The position numbers and the translations under genes are program-made. A model generated the notes under the pieces. The model was not told the DNA's origin, did no database searches, and saw nothing but the letters and a program-made list of their open reading frames with translations. From UHGV virus genome UHGV-0004901: a stretch of DNA of 38,194 bases, one strand, 5' to 3'. The stretch is from a virus. Positions 5,145-38,059 of the stretch are shown piece by piece. The number at the start of each line of letters is the position of its first letter. The first letter of the stretch is position 1.

Positions 5145-5234
5145 TTACCTCGGTCTGTTACCGTTGAGGTAATAATTATGCGTATCTGGTTTGATGTCAA
5201 TAGATATGAGTTAAAAAAATTACCCATTAGGTAA
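5145..5234. promoter_or_regulatory. Leftward early promoter/operator region (OL-like): TTACCGTTGAGGTAA (5158..5172), TTACCCATTAGGTAA (5220..5234) and an extra TTACCTC half-site (5145..5151)
   Basis: Palindromes read directly; lie between the repressor-gene terminator and the first leftward gene. Confidence 0.6.
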
Positions 5235-5291: not shown

Positions 5292-5876
5292 TTATTGTTT
5301 GTTTTTTTCGTTCTGGTTGATGACAAATTCAATGTAACTTTCGATCTTTGCTTTCTCGGTTTCGGGTAACAATGCGTAGCGCGAGCGATCATAGTTGATG
5401 GTCGCAGGGTCGTGCGGGTGAATCAGTAATTCATAGCCGTGACGCCCGAATGCGGATGCAACATTCTCCAGGGTGGAAATGGAAACGCTGACCTCATTGT
5501 TTAACAGGCGGCTGATTGTCACCTGGGCGACGCCGGATGCGCGGTGTAGTTTTCCCTGCGTTGAAAGGTCGCGGCTTTCGCTCATCCAGCGTTCCAGGTT
5601 GTGAGCCGCCAGCTGACCTATATCACTCGGGCCGACAGGCTGAAAACCTTCCTGAGAAAGCGAGCGATCGATATCAAGCCAGTTACGGGGTTTATTGGCG
5701 GCAGCTTCAATTTTTCGCGCAACCTGGTCGCCGATAACCTTCTTGCCAAGAGCCCAGCGGTTTACCAGATTTGCCTGAGTTCCAAGTTTTTCTGCCATCC
5801 GCGTCTGAACACCATTGAATTCACGGTCGATCAAGTCGTTGAGATTTTGCCTGCGGACGTCCTGGATACTTTTCAT
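5292..5876 (-). CDS. Immunity repressor (CI-like) with two HTH domains and no S24 peptidase domain
   Basis: 194 aa; two XRE-type HTH-like segments (…TRMAEKLGTQANLVNRWALGKK… and …ASGVAQVTISRLLNNE…); divergent from the Cro-like gene across an operator cluster. Confidence 0.7.
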   Translation of the reverse strand: MKSIQDVRRQNLNDLIDREFNGVQTRMAEKLGTQANLVNRWALGKKVIGDQVARKIEAAANKPRNWLDIDRSLSQEGFQPVGPSDIGQLAAHNLERWMSESRDLSTQGKLHRASGVAQVTISRLLNNEVSVSISTLENVASAFGRHGYELLIHPHDPATINYDRSRYALLPETEKAKIESYIEFVINQNEKNKQ

Positions 5877-5931: not shown

Positions 5932-5994
5932 TTACCCAACAGGTAAATGCACCTCATAGGTAACTATCCTTGATTTTTGTTACCTTATGGGTGA
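5932..5994. promoter_or_regulatory. Immunity switch operators (OR-like): TTACCCAACAGGTAA (5932..5946), GCACCTCATAGGTAA (5949..5963), TTACCTTATGGGTGA (5980..5994)
   Basis: Three tandem 15-bp palindromic sites between the divergent repressor and Cro-like genes. Confidence 0.7.
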
Positions 5995-8286: not shown

Positions 8287-8363
8287 TTACCCATCAGGTA
8301 ATAAAATATTCTAAACTCTATTGATTTCGTGTCTTATGTGGTTTTTAATTACCTCAGAGGTAA
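8287..8363. promoter_or_regulatory. Operator pair TTACCCATCAGGTAA (8287..8301) and TTACCTCAGAGGTAA (8349..8363), 62 bp centre to centre; the second overlaps the SD of the downstream gene
   Basis: Direct reading; same 62-bp spacing as the OL pair. Confidence 0.55.
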
Positions 8364-14709: not shown

Positions 14710-14786
14710 TGGCGTGGCATGCAGGATTCGAACCTGCGACCAACCGCTTAGAAGGCGGTTGCTCTGTCCAACTGAGCTAATGCCAC
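14710..14786 (-). tRNA. tRNA-Arg, anticodon UCU (decodes AGA), phage-encoded
   Basis: Folded by hand: 7-bp acceptor stem GUGGCAU/AUGCCAC, D-arm GCUC..GAGC, anticodon stem ACCGC/GCGGU with loop CUUCUAA, T-arm GCAGG-UUCGAAU-CCUGC, discriminator G and encoded CCA. Confidence 0.85.
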
Positions 14787-15108: not shown

Positions 15109-15123
15109 TTACCTGAAAGGTAA
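15109..15123. promoter_or_regulatory. Operator-like palindrome TTACCTGAAAGGTAA upstream of the virion gene block
   Basis: Direct reading; followed at 15165..15187 by a CATATGTGGTT-N5-GGTAATA element. Confidence 0.5.
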
Positions 15124-31894: not shown

Positions 31895-31917
31895 CAAAAA
31901 AGCCCTCGCCGCGGGCT
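31895..31917 (-). terminator. Rho-independent terminator after the 31917..32456 gene
   Basis: Minus-strand AGCCC-GCGGCGA-GGGCT hairpin followed by a T6 run. Confidence 0.6.
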
Positions 31918-32456
31918 TACCAAAACTTGTACCACGGGGATTTATCCTTCAATGGACAATCCTTCCATCGTGTGGCTAACCATTCATATTCTTTAAAATA
32001 TGTGTTTATGTTTTCTTTTTCTCTAATAGCTTGTATAAGAGGTAGCGCAATCTGATAGTTATTTACAACGGAGCTGTAAAATACTTCCTTAATCATGGTC
32101 TCATCATAAGTTTTCCGCTTCACGCTCACAGCCATGCGTTCGTAGAAACCTAGACAGTAAATTATTTCTCTCTTCTCTATCTTTTCTTCATCCGTAAGAT
32201 CAGCCTGCCCATTGCTTGGATACATATAAGAGCGGAATGATTTGTTCGACTCGTGAATGCGGCGCATAGTAGATAGGCCTTTCTTATAATCTACATCAAA
32301 CCTGCTTTCACCAAGGAATACTGAAGTGTGTACTTTTCTCGCTGTATTTACATTATAAATAATAGTAGCGATAGCTATGAACAAGCCAAGCGAAACCGCG
32401 ACTGCACTTACGATTTGAGCCACAGCCATGGCAAATTGCATTTCTTCACTTAACAC
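31917..32456 (-). CDS. Membrane-anchored protein of unknown function (single N-terminal TM, about 36% GC); candidate superinfection-exclusion/defence protein
   Basis: GTG start with SD GGAG; TM segment AMAVAQIVSAVAVSLGLFIAIATII; AT-rich; occupies the position held by sieA in P22-type genomes. Confidence 0.55.
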   Translation of the reverse strand: MLSEEMQFAMAVAQIVSAVAVSLGLFIAIATIIYNVNTARKVHTSVFLGESRFDVDYKKGLSTMRRIHESNKSFRSYMYPSNGQADLTDEEKIEKREIIYCLGFYERMAVSVKRKTYDETMIKEVFYSSVVNNYQIALPLIQAIREKENINTYFKEYEWLATRWKDCPLKDKSPWYKFW

Positions 32457-32496: not shown

Positions 32497-32585
32497 TCAT
32501 TAAACTATCCGAATGTTAAACGCCTTCGTACTCGTCAAATTTTCTCATGTGGGCTCCTCCTGTATCGGTGCCTAATCGCTATGGA

Positions 32586-32600
32586 TCACCCGTAAGGTAA
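32586..32600. promoter_or_regulatory. Operator-like palindrome TCACCCGTAAGGTAA
   Basis: Direct reading. Confidence 0.45.
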
Positions 32601-32672: not shown

Positions 32673-33383
32673 TCAGAAGAACCCTGCCTTGTCGTTGATG
32701 TATTCCGCGTGCGTCTGGATATCACGCAGGCATTTGCTCACACCGACGATGTAGCAGAACATGGTGGTCAGCTCCGCCGCCGCGCCCGATACGTCGTGCC
32801 CGTCTTCCTGTAACTGGTTCAGCAGATTCATCAGCAGTGAGTTCTCCGTCAGGCCGAGAACACCAGACGGCGAGTGAATCAGGCTGCGGTAGCCGGGCTT
32901 CAGCGGGGCGCTGTAGGTTTTGTTCTCTATCTTCATTGCCTGCATCACTGCTGATGCTGTGGCGTTTGCAACCTGGTCGGCAACCATCTTTATGCGTTCT
33001 TCCTGCGGGAGCGAGTTTTTAATGTAACTTCCGGTGCGGCGGATCTGAGGAAGAACCTCACCTGTAACCCATTTACGAAAGCGGTAGGGGATAGTGCCTG
33101 GTGTCACTGCGTCGCGGCAGCGGAGGATCAGTGTGTAGAGGCCTGACTCGGAGATGATGTTGATCTCTTTTACTCGGCTGTCAAAAATTGCACGATGTTC
33201 ATGCCCTATGTTGAACATAGACCTTTCATCATCATCCAGTTTTTCAAGTGCTTGGGTGACGTTTTGGATACGCAGCGCACTACAAACGTCTTGGGCTACA
33301 AACCATGGTTGGCCATCGATAATGATGGAACGGATAGGGTTAACAGATTCAAATTTGAAGATGGCAGTTTGAGCATTAGCCAT
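32673..33383 (-). CDS. ant: Antirepressor with Bro-N/KilA-N-type N-terminal domain
   Basis: ...FESVNPIRSIIIDGQPWFVAQDVCSALRIQN...GLYTLILRCRDA... matches Bro-N; start at ATG 33383 with SD GGAG. Confidence 0.8.
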   Translation of the reverse strand: MANAQTAIFKFESVNPIRSIIIDGQPWFVAQDVCSALRIQNVTQALEKLDDDERSMFNIGHEHRAIFDSRVKEINIISESGLYTLILRCRDAVTPGTIPYRFRKWVTGEVLPQIRRTGSYIKNSLPQEERIKMVADQVANATASAVMQAMKIENKTYSAPLKPGYRSLIHSPSGVLGLTENSLLMNLLNQLQEDGHDVSGAAAELTTMFCYIVGVSKCLRDIQTHAEYINDKAGFF

Positions 33384-33652
33384 GGTGGTTATCTCCACTT
33401 AGTGATTTTAATCACCACCGCAACGCCAATTACTGGTGGTGAACTGGACAAGGTTGGCGTACCGGCCTAAGTGGTACCGGCGTCCTTTCGGACCCCTGCC
33501 CAGCCCACCATAATTCGGATATAGCTGTGCTTAACGCATAAAAAAACCACGTCTGGCGTGGTATGCGCCACTTAGTAACTCGGGACGCCAATCCCGGCAC
33601 TGGATTTTGCCAGTACCCGATTACTATGGCACAAGAGGAGTGCGATGTAAAT

Positions 33653-33760
33653 TTACCGCAAAGGTAATGATAAACGCGAAGAAATATTAAAATCAACCGT
33701 ATTTGGTTGGTTGCGTTTAACGCTTGATCACCTGAAAGCAAGATATTACCTTTAAGGTAA
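33653..33760. promoter_or_regulatory. Two operator palindromes in the divergent ant / 33781 promoter region: TTACCGCAAAGGTAA (33653..33667) and TTACCTTTAAGGTAA (33746..33760)
   Basis: Direct reading. Confidence 0.55.
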
Positions 33761-33780
33761 TGTTATTGTGAGGAAAAGCA

Positions 33781-34509
33781 ATGGAAGTTTTCTGGATAGT
33801 TGTTGGTGTGGTTGCGGTGATTATTTATGTTATCAACCAGAACAAGACTAAGATCTCTGATCGTACGGTCGTTAATCATAACAAAACGATAAAGACCGAA
33901 GATGGGGAGATAACGATTAATCGTACACAGGTGATAGAACACACCTCTACTCAGTTTCAAAAAACTGGAGGTAATGCGCCTAATATTTCCGCACCTCCTG
34001 CTTATGATAGTGCGGTAATCCAGACATATTATAAACAGCAGGAGTTAGCAAAAGAGAGGCAACTGATTCAGCCAAAGCCGTTTACAGCTGAGCTTCCACC
34101 TGGAGTGTCAACGCGTCCGGCATATCATGGAAGATTCCCTGGTGATGACATATCGTCTCAGTCATCTAAAAAAGCACCTCAGGCAGTATCAGAGCCAGCA
34201 AGAATACCTTCTGTATCGCCGCCAAAAGAAGAATCAGCTAACAGAGTTTCAAGTGGTAGCAAGCAGTGCTTGCGATGCAGAATAAACCTACCATATGAAA
34301 AATTCAGGAAATCGTCAAAAAATCCAGATGGATTGACTAAGTGGTGTGCAAGGTGTCTCGATGGCCCAAAGAATACACGCCATATGAAGTGGTGCCCAAT
34401 TTGTAATGTCCGCAGAAAACGAACCAGCTTTTACCCTAATAATCAAAATGCGGACGGATTAATGGCATGGTGCAAAACGTGCTGGGATGAGCACAAAGCG
34501 AAACGATAG
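33781..34509 (+). CDS. Membrane-anchored protein with two tandem CxxC...DGLxxWCxxC zinc-ribbon-like repeats (unknown function)
   Basis: N-terminal TM MEVFWIVVGVVAVIIYVI; C-terminal repeats CLRCRINLPYEKFRKSSKNPDGLTKWCARC and CPICNVRRKRTSFYPNNQNADGLMAWCKTC. Confidence 0.6.
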   Translation: MEVFWIVVGVVAVIIYVINQNKTKISDRTVVNHNKTIKTEDGEITINRTQVIEHTSTQFQKTGGNAPNISAPPAYDSAVIQTYYKQQELAKERQLIQPKPFTAELPPGVSTRPAYHGRFPGDDISSQSSKKAPQAVSEPARIPSVSPPKEESANRVSSGSKQCLRCRINLPYEKFRKSSKNPDGLTKWCARCLDGPKNTRHMKWCPICNVRRKRTSFYPNNQNADGLMAWCKTCWDEHKAKR

Positions 34510-34533
34510 GCCGCTCTTGCGGCCTTTAAATTT
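34509..34533. terminator. Hairpin/terminator between convergent genes
   Basis: GGCCGC-TCTT-GCGGCC followed by TTTAAATTT. Confidence 0.5.
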
Positions 34534-34789
34534 ACCGGGTTTGTTTTCGTAATTGTTCGGCACAATAGTCGAGATGTGTTTGCAGATCCCGCATAGACAT
34601 CTGTGACCTGGTGACGTAGTTAATCAGTGCAGTCAGTTCGGCAAGTGGGCCATCGACATTAAATCCATCCTTATCGAGATCCCGGAGTAATTTCATCAAG
34701 TGCGATCCCTCCACCAGTGATCTGACGCCTCCCGGCGTGTGAATCCTTTCGGTAAATCCGTCTTCCAGTGGATAGTGATACTGCTGCAT
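34532..34789 (-). CDS. Antirepressor C-terminal-domain paralog (85 aa, stand-alone)
   Basis: ...GGVRSLVEGSHLMKLLRDLDKDGFNVDGPLAELTALINYV...RDLQTH... aligns by eye with the Ant C-terminus ...SGVLGLTENSLLMNLLNQLQEDGHDVSGAAAELTTMFCYI...RDIQTH...; strong SD GGAGAAG before ATG 34789. Confidence 0.5.
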   Translation of the reverse strand: MQQYHYPLEDGFTERIHTPGGVRSLVEGSHLMKLLRDLDKDGFNVDGPLAELTALINYVTRSQMSMRDLQTHLDYCAEQLRKQTR

Positions 34790-34865
34790 CTTATCTTCTC
34801 CATACGATAACTGTATATTTATACAGTAACAAATAATTTGTTTGCTATCCAGCACGTTTTGCAAA

Positions 34866-34880
34866 TCACCTGAAAGGTAA
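34866..34880. promoter_or_regulatory. Operator-like palindrome TCACCTGAAAGGTAA between the Ant-C paralog and the tail fibre gene; followed by CATATGTGGTT-N5-GGTAATA (34910..34932)
   Basis: Direct reading. Confidence 0.5.
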
Positions 34881-34984
34881 TATCTGTTCGTATTTATGGG
34901 TTGTCTATCCATATGTGGTTTTTTAGGTAATAGAATGACCAGATATGCGGCGCAACGGGTGCTGCGACTATCTGGAGATTTAAC

Positions 34985-37900
34985 ATGACGGTCTCAACCG
35001 AAGTTGACCACAACGAATACACCGGTAACGGAGTTACGACATCATTTCCGTATACCTTCCGTATTTTCAAAAAATCCGACCTGGTTGTTCAGGTGTCTGA
35101 TCTGAACGGGAACGTAACAGAATTGGTGCTTGATACCGGTTATAAGGTAACTGGAGCGGGCACTTATAGTGGCGGTGAAGTGGTTCTTCCGTCGCCGCTT
35201 GCTGCTGGCTGGCGAATTACGATAGAGCGTGTGCTTGATGTGGTGCAGGAGACTGATCTTCGCAATCAGGGAAAATTTTTCCCCGAAGTTCATGAGGATG
35301 CATTCGACTACCTGACGATGCTGATCCAGCGATGTTTTGGGTGGTTCAGACGTGCATTGATGAAGCCCTCGCTGCTTGCAAAATATTACGATGCAAAGCA
35401 AAACAAAATTTCTAACCTTGCAGATCCATCACTTGAGCAGGACGCTGTAAATAATCGTTCAATGCGTAAGTATGTGGATGCTGCAATTGCTGGTGTTGTC
35501 GGTGGTTTCGGATGGTTTATCCAGTATGGTGCTGGAGCTGTATACAGAACGTTCCAGGATAAGATGCGTGATACAGTAAGTGTGAAAGATTATGCTGCTG
35601 TTGGAGATGGTATAACTGATGATACGAATTCTTTTATTCTGGCTCCTGAAAATGCTTATGTTCCACCTGGAGTATATCTTGTTGATACGTTGAAAGTAGA
35701 TGTAAGCAAAATGACAGGGGAAGGGATGATTCTTTCCAAAACTGGTCATCTACTTTCTCTTCGTAATAATATCAGTAATACATTGGTGCAACGCCATTTA
35801 ATGGAAGCATTTATGGGTTTTGGTGAGTCCCAAGTTTTTCCAAATGGTGAGGCTACAAGTCAAGGGTGTGCTTATGCGAATTATAATGGTAAAAAATTAT
35901 TTATTTTACAAACGGTTGTTGGCAGTGCTGAAGGTAGTGGAAACTTCAACTCTAAAGTAACATCAGCTGGTGACTTCATAACCGGAATTGAATATGAAAT
36001 AGTAAGTATAGGTTCAACTGATTTTACAACTATAGGGGCTGCTGAAAATAATATTGGTGTACGATTTACGGCGAATGGTCCAGGGGTTGGTACAGGAACA
36101 GCAGCTGCTTTAGAGAAGCGCAGGCTGGTTGAATACTCGTTTTCTGATGATGGTTCAGTAGTGCAAAATACTACTTACACTGCACCAATATTAAATAACC
36201 ATCAGGGAATATCTACGATAGTTATTGATGATGACCTTTTTATTTATACCCAAATGGTTACCCAGCCTACATATCGAGGAAATGATGGAGGAAAAGGTTA
36301 TTCAAAATTAATTTGGAAAGGGAGCAGCACATCTGAATCTGATGTGATTACTTATCAGCTTTTTGGATATTCTGGTTCTGGTCATCCTTATCAGAATTAT
36401 AATTCAGCAACCCCGTGTGTATCTTCAGATGGAAGGTATGTTGTTCTTGTTGCAACTGATAGCACAGCAGATGATGATGCCTGGTATGTATTTGTTTACA
36501 GCAGGATACACGTAGAATCCCTTGACAATAGTTTGGAAGCAAGACCATTGTATTATTTCAGGATTCCACATCCGCAGCGCGGAACTGATACTCATGTTAT
36601 TCAAGATGTTGCCAGTGATGGTAAGTACATCTATATATTAAGGGGATATACACATCCGTTCATGTTGCATATTATTCAGAAGTTTGATTATTCTGGTAAT
36701 ATTCTTGCTGAATTTTCATTTGAGGGGGCTCGTTCTCTTTATGGATACAAAAATCTTATGGATAATCCAAAGTATGGGACCCCCCATTCATTTGAACCTG
36801 AAGGTATAGACATGTATGAAGGAGACCTTATTATTCTAACTATGGATAATTGGGATTCTGGAGCTTCTATTATAACTTACAAAGGAAAGAATTATTCCGC
36901 TTTTTCTACTGCTTCTGGTATTGCTCCGGATGATCCCGATGGATTTAGAATGTGGGCGATAACAAATAAAGTTAGTGGTGGGGAATACTCGAATGATAAA
37001 AAGTACAGCGATGGAGTGTATTCGAAACGAGGAAAACAGATATTTCTTATTTCACAATCGCGTGGGGTTGCTAATGAACTCCCATTGAATTCCGCCTTGA
37101 CAACTCGTGTTAATAACTCACCACTTTCTTCTATAAGTTCTGCTTTTGATGTTTCCTTTAAATTAGGAGAGAACTGGATATTGGGGGGGTATTCAGAAAA
37201 TACTTCAGAATATAAAAAAGCCATTCAGTATGCTAGTAATGGTGCTTTTCGTGTTCATGATTCCCGCAGAGAATCTGACAATAATAAGTACTGGTCTATA
37301 CGTGGTGGATATGATGTAACACCGCAGATACAAGAAGTTGTTGAATTTAGGTGTCGTGGTACTGTAGAAAATGGGGCTGGCTGGAATGCTTATGGTTCTA
37401 ATGACTATCGCTTACCAAACAGGTTTCGTATGTTCCCTGGCGGGAGCTTTGGCGGTACTCAAGTTCTTGTCGAGATAGCTAATCCAGTTAATGATAATCC
37501 TTATTTTGCTCCCACAGGGCAGATAGGAACAGTTAATAATGGTACAACGACAGCATACTGGAATAACATATATAGCAAGAATGCTGTCACTGTTGTTTCA
37601 GATGTTAATTACAAAGATGAATTCTCGGATATACCGACTGAACTTATTGAAGCCGTGGGTAGTGTAAAATTTCAAATGTGGAAGATGAAGGATGAAATAT
37701 TACGAAAAGGAAGTGAACATGCCAGATATCATTTTGGAGTTGTAGCGCAGCAAGTTAAGGATGCAATTACAAAAGCTGGTCTTGATTGGAAGAAGTATGG
37801 TCTTATTACGTATGAAGAAACCAGTGTTTTGGTAAGAGAAAACGAATCTGGTGATTTTTATCCTATTGATATTGAGTCTTGTCCAATTCCAGTTAATGAA

Positions 37901-38059
37901 TTTGGGATTATTAAATTAATAGAAGGTGCAGATGAAATTAAAGAAGATAAACATGGAAATTTGGTATTGACAAGATCTATTTACATGATGCGTATGGATG
38001 AATTTGAAATAATAAGGATGGCATATCAAGAAAAGAAAATAGCGGATCTAATAAGTTAA
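34985..38059 (+). CDS. Tail fibre/tailspike protein: T7 gp17-like N-terminal virion-attachment domain, AT-rich distal receptor-binding region, C-terminal chaperone-like segment
   Basis: N-terminus ...TGNGVTTSFPYTFRIFKKSDLVVQV...RITIERVLDVVQETDLRNQGKFFP resembles the T7 tail fibre N-terminal domain; GC drops from about 50% to about 36% after roughly 35.6 kb; C-terminal ...SDVNYKDEF...YHFGVVAQQVKD... resembles intramolecular chaperone (S74-like) domains. Confidence 0.8.
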   Translation: MTVSTEVDHNEYTGNGVTTSFPYTFRIFKKSDLVVQVSDLNGNVTELVLDTGYKVTGAGTYSGGEVVLPSPLAAGWRITIERVLDVVQETDLRNQGKFFPEVHEDAFDYLTMLIQRCFGWFRRALMKPSLLAKYYDAKQNKISNLADPSLEQDAVNNRSMRKYVDAAIAGVVGGFGWFIQYGAGAVYRTFQDKMRDTVSVKDYAAVGDGITDDTNSFILAPENAYVPPGVYLVDTLKVDVSKMTGEGMILSKTGHLLSLRNNISNTLVQRHLMEAFMGFGESQVFPNGEATSQGCAYANYNGKKLFILQTVVGSAEGSGNFNSKVTSAGDFITGIEYEIVSIGSTDFTTIGAAENNIGVRFTANGPGVGTGTAAALEKRRLVEYSFSDDGSVVQNTTYTAPILNNHQGISTIVIDDDLFIYTQMVTQPTYRGNDGGKGYSKLIWKGSSTSESDVITYQLFGYSGSGHPYQNYNSATPCVSSDGRYVVLVATDSTADDDAWYVFVYSRIHVESLDNSLEARPLYYFRIPHPQRGTDTHVIQDVASDGKYIYILRGYTHPFMLHIIQKFDYSGNILAEFSFEGARSLYGYKNLMDNPKYGTPHSFEPEGIDMYEGDLIILTMDNWDSGASIITYKGKNYSAFSTASGIAPDDPDGFRMWAITNKVSGGEYSNDKKYSDGVYSKRGKQIFLISQSRGVANELPLNSALTTRVNNSPLSSISSAFDVSFKLGENWILGGYSENTSEYKKAIQYASNGAFRVHDSRRESDNNKYWSIRGGYDVTPQIQEVVEFRCRGTVENGAGWNAYGSNDYRLPNRFRMFPGGSFGGTQVLVEIANPVNDNPYFAPTGQIGTVNNGTTTAYWNNIYSKNAVTVVSDVNYKDEFSDIPTELIEAVGSVKFQMWKMKDEILRKGSEHARYHFGVVAQQVKDAITKAGLDWKKYGLITYEETSVLVRENESGDFYPIDIESCPIPVNEFGIIKLIEGADEIKEDKHGNLVLTRSIYMMRMDEFEIIRMAYQEKKIADLIS

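Follow-up and report, generated by a model that had tools for sequence, protein, structure and literature searches.

What does a temperate phage gain from a small membrane protein that carries two zinc-binding modules, when the gene for it lies beside an antirepressor gene and its promoter appears to carry the phage's own operator? We address this question for the gene at positions 33781..34509 (+) of the virus genome UHGV-0004901, the whole analyzed stretch of 38,194 nucleotides being referred to as the window. The window corresponds to a phiV10/epsilon15-like (Uetakevirus-type) temperate podophage. An earlier note, made from the DNA letters alone, described here an open reading frame (ORF) of 242 amino acids with an N-terminal transmembrane (TM) helix, a Pro/Ser-rich linker and two tandem Cys4 modules with a DGL-x2-WC-x2-C signature, and reported an operator palindrome at its promoter; all of these observations are confirmed below. 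That note is nevertheless supported only in part, since the module that it could assign to no family does have relatives, its suggested link to lysogeny is half right, and the divergent orientation with respect to the antirepressor gene, ant, is misleading as a defining context. The protein belongs to PHROG 6762, and what we find is a known zinc module in an uncharacterized membrane-tethered architecture, placed where phage exclusion genes sit.

Architecture and topology of the protein

The coding sequence starts with an ATG preceded by a Shine-Dalgarno-like GAGGA at 33770-33774, the start codon following 6 nt further on. The TM helix covers amino acids 3-21 (33787..33843, +). In an AlphaFold2 (AF2) full-length model built on a 22-sequence family alignment this segment is a helix with a predicted local distance difference test score (pLDDT) of about 90, and its sequence, VFWIVVGVVAVIIYVIN, contains no charged residues: the protein begins with Met-Glu, continues with 17 uncharged hydrophobic residues and then reads QNKTKISDR. 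Among the 22 homologs F4, W5, G9, V10, Q20 and N21 are invariant or nearly so (G9 near-invariant, N21 invariant), and the helix is kept at the sequence level, beyond mere hydrophobicity.

Concerning the orientation of the helix, over 64 family members the mean charge is -0.89 ahead of the TM segment and +2.31 in the 15 residues behind it. By the well established positive-inside rule this bias predicts a single-pass inner-membrane protein of N-out/C-in topology, with about 2 residues outside, which is also the only orientation compatible with two Cys4 zinc sites. Two other assignments were considered and rejected. A cleavable signal peptide would require a basic n-region, which the Met-Glu start does not offer, an AXA-type cleavage site is missing as well, and Cys4 domains further down the chain would not suit the periplasm. 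Zinc-binding anti-sigma (ZAS) factors are defined by an N-terminal cytoplasmic H-x3-C-x2-C domain followed by a TM segment and an extracytoplasmic C-terminus; here the order is reversed, TM first and zinc last, the motif is C-x2-C...C-x2-C, and no anti-sigma Pfam model matches the window protein.

Directly behind the helix, amino acids 25-57 (33853..33951, +) are predicted to form a long β-hairpin, with strands at 26-39 and 42-55 modeled by AF2 at medium confidence (pLDDT 50-67). The consensus of this juxtamembrane segment, SDRTVV..TIKTEDGEI.I.RTQV, is recognizable even in Kingella and Acinetobacter homologs. Because both the TM and the juxtamembrane sequences are conserved, the membrane-proximal part probably does more than anchor the protein, and it may oligomerize or contact a membrane partner.

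The following tether, amino acids 60-158 (33958..34254, +), is on the contrary disordered and hypervariable, differing among homologs in length as well as in sequence. Its composition is 46% Pro/Ser/Ala/Gln, most of residues 95-158 are modeled at low confidence, with pLDDT below 50 over 111-137 and 148-154, and AF2 predicts a helix at residues 77-94.

The C-terminal domain (residues 160-242) is again confident in the full-length model, and an AF2 model of the domain alone reaches a mean pLDDT of 89.7. It is made of two Cys4 zinc-ribbon modules, at amino acids 161-195 (34261..34365, +) and 203-237 (34387..34491, +). The first reads C163-x2-C166...D183-G-L-x2-W-C189-x2-C192, and the second, an internal repeat of it, C205-x2-C208...D225-G-L-x2-W-C231-x2-C234. 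Aligned with each other the two modules score 68 with BLOSUM62, as compared with 21.7 ± 4.7 for shuffled sequences (z = 9.7; none of 2000 shuffles reaches 68). Among the 22 homologs C163, C166, C189, C192, D183, G184 and W188 are invariant in module 1 and C205, C208, C231 and C234 near-invariant in module 2, so that conservation is complete or at least 90% at each of the eight Cys. With 20 Lys/Arg versus 6 Asp/Glu the domain is strongly basic (net charge +14). A cytoplasmic side composed of a β-hairpin, a tether of about 100 residues and a compact basic head of two tandem zinc ribbons is thereby strongly supported.

Identity of the zinc modules

The window protein matches the phrog_6762 profile over its full length (E 1.1e-150, 501 bits, residues 1-242 on profile positions 1-242 of 242), with no differing part; this family is annotated as function unknown. 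The modules themselves point to better known proteins. Pfam Stc1 (PF12898) is matched with 21 bits (E 5e-4), which lies below its gathering threshold of 24.8, in two stretches that fall on profile positions 52-83, and the tandem arrangement with eight conserved Cys, predicted to bind zinc, is itself a Stc1-like feature. The kinship to Stc1 is best placed at the superfamily level, without formal membership of PF12898. Among the PHROG families, further matches are confined to the zinc-ribbon parts of endonuclease VII, HNH endonuclease, primase and Lar-like families.

A phmmer search with the C-terminal 86 residues retrieved 864 clusters at 50% identity, in which two groups stand out. The first comprises dozens of proteins of about 180-240 amino acids with an N-terminal TM segment, a spacer and exactly two modules. 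The second consists of proteins with 3-8 tandem copies of a 30-amino-acid module of consensus K.C.KC..KP..EF.K....DGL...CK.C; several of these repeat proteins pass the Stc1 threshold (P0070 with 60.9 bits, P0098 with 39.2 and P0036 with 33.9), and some sibling repeat proteins are fused to HNH nuclease, superfamily 1 helicase or superfamily 2 helicase domains.

Structural comparison with Foldseek, which the earlier note had named as a check, gave nothing at E <= 0.001 for the full-length model against the PDB. Against the viral models of BFVD it returned 37 matches at E <= 1e-3, largely HNH/ββα-Me/endonuclease VII proteins, phage proteins labeled 'Stc1 domain' and giant-virus Zn-finger proteins. 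In profile comparison with PDB sequences the N-terminal Cys4 site of PacI came out best (E 0.23, sub-threshold), phmmer against PDB sequences gave a sub-threshold RING chimera (E 0.96), and searches of NCBIfam and PADLOC yielded nothing meaningful. The literature searches retrieved no paper on a membrane-tethered Stc1/zinc-ribbon phage architecture.

A structural precedent is Hpy99I, which contains two β4α2 repeats, each with a structural zinc held by two CXXC motifs, and whose first, non-catalytic repeat touches the DNA major groove (PMC2699513). The AF2 model shows the arrangement described for these repeats, a β-hairpin followed by a helix that starts at the second CXXC (PMC2699513). Between the CXXC pairs, in the module stretches RINLPYEKFRKSSKNPDGLTKW and NVRRKRTSFYPNNQNADGLMAW, there is neither a His nor an Asp-His, and the HNH and Endonuclease_7 Pfam models give no match at E <= 1. 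From profile and model comparison, then, the modules classify as Cys4 zinc ribbons of the Stc1-type/HNH-accessory kind, with no catalytic His and no nuclease domain. The resemblance to Stc1/HNH accessory ribbons lies in the two C-x2-C pairs per module of about 30 amino acids and in the tandem arrangement; the difference from them is that in the window protein the domain is, uniquely, joined through a long tether to a membrane anchor at the N-terminus. With respect to the HNH/ββα-Me nucleases, the window protein differs in having no catalytic His, HNH Pfam match or nuclease domain.

That the head binds nucleic acid is suggested by the nuclease and helicase domains with which the module is associated, by the precedent of Hpy99I and by the positive charge; we see about even chances for it.

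Selection, distribution and accessory status

All 54 close copies found in viral contigs (39 distinct alleles) are intact at 242 amino acids. In these copies the ratio of nonsynonymous to synonymous polymorphism (pN/pS) is 0.26 for the whole gene, 0.27 for the TM and juxtamembrane part (amino acids 1-59), 0.72 for the linker (60-158) and 0.06 for the zinc domain (159-242), a pattern in keeping with an anchor and a head that are both functional and a spacer between them that evolves almost neutrally. The architecture of a TM segment plus two modules is kept in dozens of 50%-identity clusters, reaching as far as Kingella and Acinetobacter. This evidence bears directly on the idea that the gene is a functionless, decayed remnant of an HNH homing endonuclease or another selfish element, for which speak the otherwise typical occurrence of the module in HNH/endonuclease VII proteins and the annotation of the gene in phage TL-2011b as a mere misc_feature; the purifying selection on the zinc domain, the intact copies, the conserved architecture and the retention of conserved promoter, operator and terminator effectively refute it, and we consider it extremely improbable.

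TL-2011b is the only deposited phage that carries the gene. In its RefSeq record (L001, 3017-4105) the intact ORF and the region of the small RNAs isrK and C4 ahead of it are joined in one misc_feature, 'similar to hypothetical protein', with no coding sequence; this is an annotation artefact, and the ORF is no pseudogene. A longer ancestral ORF, which the extent of that misc_feature could suggest, was rejected too, as the upstream stretch is taken up by the isrK and C4 RNAs and TL-2011b has the ORF in intact form.

A four-way DNA alignment delimits a cassette of about 860 bp (33675..34532) that contains promoter, operator, gene and terminator. It is present in the window and in TL-2011b and absent, as a clean indel, from phiV10 and from HEMP4, with flanking sequences of 98% identity. 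The cassette closes with an intrinsic-terminator-like hairpin (34508..34525, +) that lies inside the indel and has a 7-bp stem with 6 GC and a T-rich tail. The left flank is common to many E. coli prophages as far as about 33668-33674, beyond which they differ. The left junction falls on the ant operator, which suggests operator-mediated mosaic recombination. A transposition-type insertion was considered and rejected: in the window the cassette is bordered by a direct repeat of 10 bp, AAATTTACCG, and since this repeat is missing at the right junction in TL-2011b it is no target-site duplication.

At least 80% of the region is carried by 114 of 5426 complete E. coli genomes (about 2%), in which PGAP labels the product as hypothetical protein, and the gene also occurs in phages of Serratia, Salmonella, Enterobacter, Providencia, Edwardsiella, Aeromonas, Acinetobacter and Kingella. 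Because phiV10 and HEMP4 are viable without it, the gene is dispensable for the phage life cycle, and it constitutes a stand-alone accessory cassette of temperate phages. The earlier note had taken absence from otherwise identical phages as a sign against its interpretation; such absence does occur, and it fits an accessory role. The proposal of an accessory gene tied to immunity and anti-immunity circuitry agrees with the indel and with its frequency in E. coli. We thus hold the architecture, topology and accessory status described so far with high confidence.

Promoter, operator and repressor circuit

The candidate σ70 promoter of the gene (33724..33752, +) consists of a -35 box TTGATC at 33724-33729, a 17-nt spacer and a -10 box TACCTT at 33747-33752, which predicts a transcription start around 33759. 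Overlapping the -10 box, and 20 nt ahead of the ATG, is the palindrome ATTACC-N5-GGTAAT (ATTACCTTTAAGGTAAT, 33745..33761), of which TACCTT supplies the left half (core 33746-33760). The core motif TYACC-N5-GGTRA is found 12 times in the window against 0.09 expected. One pair of copies, at 5158 and 5220, is OL-like and lies beside the repressor ORF; another, at 5932 and 5980, is OR-like and lies between the repressor and the cro-like ORF; those at 8287, 8349, 11964 and 15109 stand ahead of other transcription units; and those at 32586, 33653, 33746 and 34866 belong to the accessory region around the zinc-ribbon gene. The operator precedes nearly every transcription unit of the phage, structural ones included, a distributed design reminiscent of that of P1 C1. 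Our literature search found no paper defining a TYACC-N5-GGTRA operator for Uetakeviruses.

The layout of the promoter is shared beyond the window. It reads TTGACC-17-TACCTT in Enterobacter/Citrobacter/Salmonella-type loci, TTGATC-17-TACCTT in locus L071 and TTGAAC-17-TACCTT in Serratia, the upstream regions being otherwise diverged, and the operator ends 17-24 nt ahead of the ATG in the Serratia, Superficieibacter, L071 and Enterobacter-type loci. Providencia phages have another palindrome, TTAACC-N5-GGTTAA (core TAACC-N5-GGTTA), at the equivalent position, and this palindrome recurs 2-3 times per about 10 kb, while by our own estimate about 0.01 would be expected. Given this layout conserved across genera and the exchange of the palindrome in Providencia, the promoter tracks the operator of the resident phage, and what travels with the gene is its own operator-promoter. 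In the window the gene's promoter would accordingly be one that carries the resident phage's operator over its -10 box, a repressive geometry.

The likely binder of these operators, judging from the arrangement of the sites, is the 194-amino-acid product of the repressor ORF at 5292..5876 (-), whose gene, together with the cro-like ORF, is flanked by the operator pairs. It has an HTH_3 domain, with two helix-turn-helix (HTH)-like regions, lacks a Peptidase_S24 domain, and recurs with 100% identity as the repressor in phiV10, ZX5 and a dozen other phages. In ZX5, lytic transcription is lost when the repressor is overexpressed, and the Bro-N antirepressor of that phage works against the repressor (PMC9782041). 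We regard control of the zinc-ribbon gene by the phage repressor as fairly probable. With the operator overlapping the -10 box, the gene is predicted to be silent or throttled in a stable lysogen, as long as the repressor occupies the operator, and it would be switched on, along with the rest of the derepression regulon, right after infection or once antirepressors inactivate the repressor.

Genomic context in other phages

In epsilon15-like prophages of at least six genera the gene is always found in the same variable slot, flanked by the tailspike gene and the last of the injection-protein genes, and close to one or more antirepressor genes. Its orientation with respect to ant varies by lineage: divergent in the window, as the earlier note had it, it is co-directional in phages of Enterobacter, Citrobacter and Superficieibacter, so that divergence does not define the context.

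A second type of context is found elsewhere. In Aeromonas phage phiARM81mr, in a Kingella and an Acinetobacter prophage and in at least three uncultured lineages (among them L108, L119/L167 and L168) the gene lies 15-54 nt downstream of a canonical cI (HTH plus Peptidase_S24), on the same strand, which brings this cI-adjacent or "rexAB position" to at least six distant lineages in total. Such placement predicts expression in lysogens. The association with lysogeny proposed in the earlier note may therefore hold for these lineages and not for that of the window, where the operator over the -10 box predicts repression. All-against-all clustering of neighbors over about 13 distant lineages identified CI as the sole recurrent neighbor, in 8 lineages, and no conserved partner gene. 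In the window about 28 kb separate the gene from that of the repressor, and it forms a unit of its own. The picture is that of a single-gene module joined to temperate-phage immunity circuitry in two ways, either behind cI or behind the resident operator.

Some distant loci show variations of this scheme. In L119 (5498-6151) and L167 (5225-5878) the pair of cI and zinc-ribbon genes is followed by an ORF with Staphylococcal-nuclease and Excalibur domains. This ORF starts within a short overlap with the gene before it, and its hydrophobic N-terminus may represent a signal peptide. In the gut podophage homologs of L093 (5001-5636) and L095 (4971-5618) the TM segment and the two zinc modules are kept, and a long heptad-like, probably coiled-coil segment replaces the β-hairpin and the Pro/Ser linker; GenBank virome records name these homologs 'Meiotic chromosome segregation protein', a label that presumably derives from the Stc1 family description. 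A homologous small membrane protein of about 102 amino acids (…WLNY..SNI.G.IIF…WLATKSDI) adjoins the gene in L168 (4518-5249) and L105 (4911-5806). The zinc-ribbon protein of L168 has 134 amino acids and no N-terminal TM segment, an arrangement that may represent a split version of the architecture.

Proposed role

Taken through to its biological role, our best reading, offered tentatively, is that of a membrane-tethered nucleic-acid binder serving inter-phage exclusion or defense. An infecting phage delivers its DNA to the cytoplasmic face of the inner membrane, and it is at this face that the zinc-ribbon head would bind nucleic acid. Two outcomes can be envisaged: the incoming DNA of a competitor could be trapped or blocked, resulting in superinfection exclusion, or the sensing of nucleic acid could be coupled to the conserved, probably oligomerizing membrane segment in an abortive-infection-like response. 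The role is suggested by the rexAB-like position behind cI, by the SieA-like slot in podophages and by the dispensability of the gene for the phage; as a statement on exclusion or defense by itself we would put it somewhat short of even chances. Both wiring schemes would give expression early after infection, when the cell is most exposed to a secondary infection.

Three known systems provide points of comparison. In P22 the sieA gene has the equivalent map position, in the variable region that separates the tailspike gene from the injection-protein genes, next to anti-immunity genes. SieA is an inner-membrane blocker of DNA injection (PMC10883804) and, like the window protein with its predicted localization, a prophage accessory inner-membrane protein of a short-tailed temperate phage. 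The two differ in that there is no sequence similarity, that SieA contains no zinc domain and is predicted to have three TM segments, and that SieA is expressed from the prophage, whereas the window gene has a repressor operator over its -10 box. With lambda rexAB the family shares the position close behind cI on the same strand in the lineages listed above. There is also a conceptual likeness, since RexA plus RexB combine a cytoplasmic nucleic-acid-binding part with a membrane part; on the other hand, there is no homology, the present protein is a single polypeptide, and the window gene lies outside the cI operon. The third system is p16.7 of phi29, which recruits phage DNA to the membrane and likewise consists of an N-terminal TM segment, a spacer or oligomerization element and a C-terminal nucleic-acid-binding domain, is made early (PMC4974454), and has the binding activity that is here predicted. 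Its DNA-binding fold is unrelated, it serves protein-primed replication in a lytic Bacillus phage, and the window protein is in contrast dispensable and linked to immunity regions.

Several points weigh against exclusion or defense as proposed. The family is known from sequence and models alone. The -10 box TACCTT is a poor match to the consensus, and the promoter is recognized from its conservation only. An operator over the -10 box predicts repression in the lysogen, which is the opposite of what is seen for the classical prophage-expressed sieA and rexAB. PADLOC returned no hit, and no Sie, Rex or Abi family was found among the PHROG matches (for Sie, at E <= 0.1). Nucleic-acid binding is not assured either, because Stc1-type tandem zinc fingers can be protein-protein adaptors, as in yeast, where Stc1 binds Ago1. 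Finally, we know of no well-established precedent among exclusion proteins for a cytoplasmic binder of incoming DNA.

If exclusion or abortion were nevertheless true, the protein would represent a mechanistically distinct prophage defense, a cytoplasm-facing membrane-tethered nucleic-acid binder that is not in PADLOC, and its carriers include phiV10/TL-2011b-type prophages associated with Shiga toxin-producing E. coli. The more specific version of this proposal, a new single-protein exclusion or abortive-infection device with a non-catalytic HNH-derived zinc-ribbon sensor that would catch or sense a competitor's DNA on its exit from the injection channel, the TM helix and β-hairpin as effector and two wiring modes, appears doubtful. 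The presence of one accessory gene in two immunity circuits, co-transcribed with cI or placed behind a resident operator over its -10 box, offers in any case a natural experiment on moron regulation.

Alternative explanations

The same architecture could serve the phage itself. T4 Ndd pulls the host nucleoid to the periphery, and a membrane tether for DNA acting in this manner, or one that fastened the phage genome or its replication intermediates to the membrane like phi29 p16.7, would be an auxiliary early lytic function. The order of N-terminal TM segment, spacer and DNA-binding domain is that of p16.7 (PMC4974454), the replacement of hairpin and linker by a coiled coil in L093 and L095 would suit such a tether, the domain is strongly basic, and with its promoter under operator control the gene is predicted to be expressed soon after infection or induction. 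We nonetheless find it unlikely, in view of the near-identical viable phages without the gene, of the at least six lineages in which it lies in the cI operon and would be made in lysogens with no phage replication taking place, and of the clustering of neighbors, which revealed no linked replication genes.

Similarly improbable, in our estimate, is a component of the lysis-lysogeny switch, in which the zinc fingers would keep a regulator bound at the membrane and thereby shift the decision or the threshold for induction; this regulator could be the repressor, an antirepressor, the isrK/C4 RNAs or their target mRNA, or a host factor such as Hfq or FtsH. This explanation accounts well for the gene being always found beside cI or beside antirepressor genes with C4/isrK leaders, and for the resident phage's own operator in its promoter. 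Zinc ribbons of this type can moreover bind RNA or protein, that of Nob1 binding ribosomal RNA according to a passage in a review (PMC3592412). It accounts less well for the dispensability of the gene, which is missing from phiV10, HEMP4 and ZX5, the last of which still lysogenizes and induces. In addition, no specific partner co-varies with the gene, and the same zinc domain accompanies both S24-cleavable repressors and non-cleavable double-HTH repressors.

Less probable again is an early effector directed at the host and not at other phages, which would inhibit a host process (cell division, for example) from the membrane or set the timing of lysis. The order of an anchor, a flexible Pro/Ser-rich tether and a cytoplasmic globular domain resembles that of ZipA, the gene is co-regulated with the early/derepression regulon, and the high conservation of the TM helix suggests specific membrane contacts. 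Placement in the cI operon in many lineages implies, on the other hand, that lysogens tolerate the protein continuously, and neither PHROGs nor Pfam indicated similarity to Kil, DicB, Icd or holins. With these alternatives weighed, the membrane-tethered binder for exclusion or defense remains the reading that we prefer.

Neighboring genes and other features of the window

The Bro-N antirepressor gene (32673..33398, -) is divergent from the zinc-ribbon gene and separated from it by a 383-bp gap. This gap is no shared promoter region: it contains the antirepressor operon's own promoter and operator and an isrK/C4 leader. On the minus strand, isrK lies at 33540-33616 (Rfam, 63.5 bits) and the C4 antisense RNA at 33432-33515 (Rfam, 66 bits), both above the gathering threshold. 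The promoter with its operator (33623..33667, -) reads TTTACA-17-CATAGT with an extended TG; its -10 box ends 7 nt ahead of the isrK 5' end (33616), and the operator, at 33653-33667, abuts its -35 box. The leader is outside the cassette and present in phiV10 and HEMP4. We take isrK and C4 ahead of ant to be the known P1/Gifsy-type leader of antirepressor operons. The pair also precedes ant in L063, L065, L069, L073 and L088, and its place is taken by sRNA-Xcc1 in L093 and L110. The isrK/C4 stretch of about 270 bp is found in hundreds of E. coli prophages, where it bears no annotation.

On the other side of the cassette is a small ORF (34532..34789, -) of 85 amino acids from an ATG at 34789, a homolog of phiV10 gp24 that shares the C-terminal domain phrog_450 with the Bro-N Ant. 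The 17-nt spacer of its TTGTTA...TATCGT promoter is filled by a near-consensus LexA box, CTGTATATTTATACAG (34811-34826), and a second, operator-bearing promoter lies further upstream (operator at 34866; stretch 34532-34912). This ORF probably encodes an SOS-inducible antirepressor that triggers induction of a repressor with no self-cleavage domain.

At 31917-32456 (-) the window encodes a DUF4760 protein (PF15956, phrog_2284), whose gene is preceded by a very short ORF with a strong Shine-Dalgarno sequence, an ATG at 32548 and a promoter overlapped by the operator at 32586-32600. In TL-2011b the same slot holds a YafO-family toxin. A DUF4760 gene also adjoins the distant homolog in the gut podophage locus L093 (4162-4692); DUF4760 as an obligatory partner was rejected, as it is near the gene in the window and in L093 and not in the other epsilon15-like loci.

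The window further contains a phage tRNA-Arg (anticodon TCT) at 14710-14786 (-), upstream of which, on the same strand, are an operator copy at 15109 and a TTGACA hexamer. The tailspike gene (34985-38059, +) encodes 1024 amino acids, with a conserved N-terminal head-binding part and a C-terminal Peptidase_S74 intramolecular chaperone domain. The tailspike shows weak pectate-lyase and β-propeller matches, and related loci carry entirely different receptor-binding portions.

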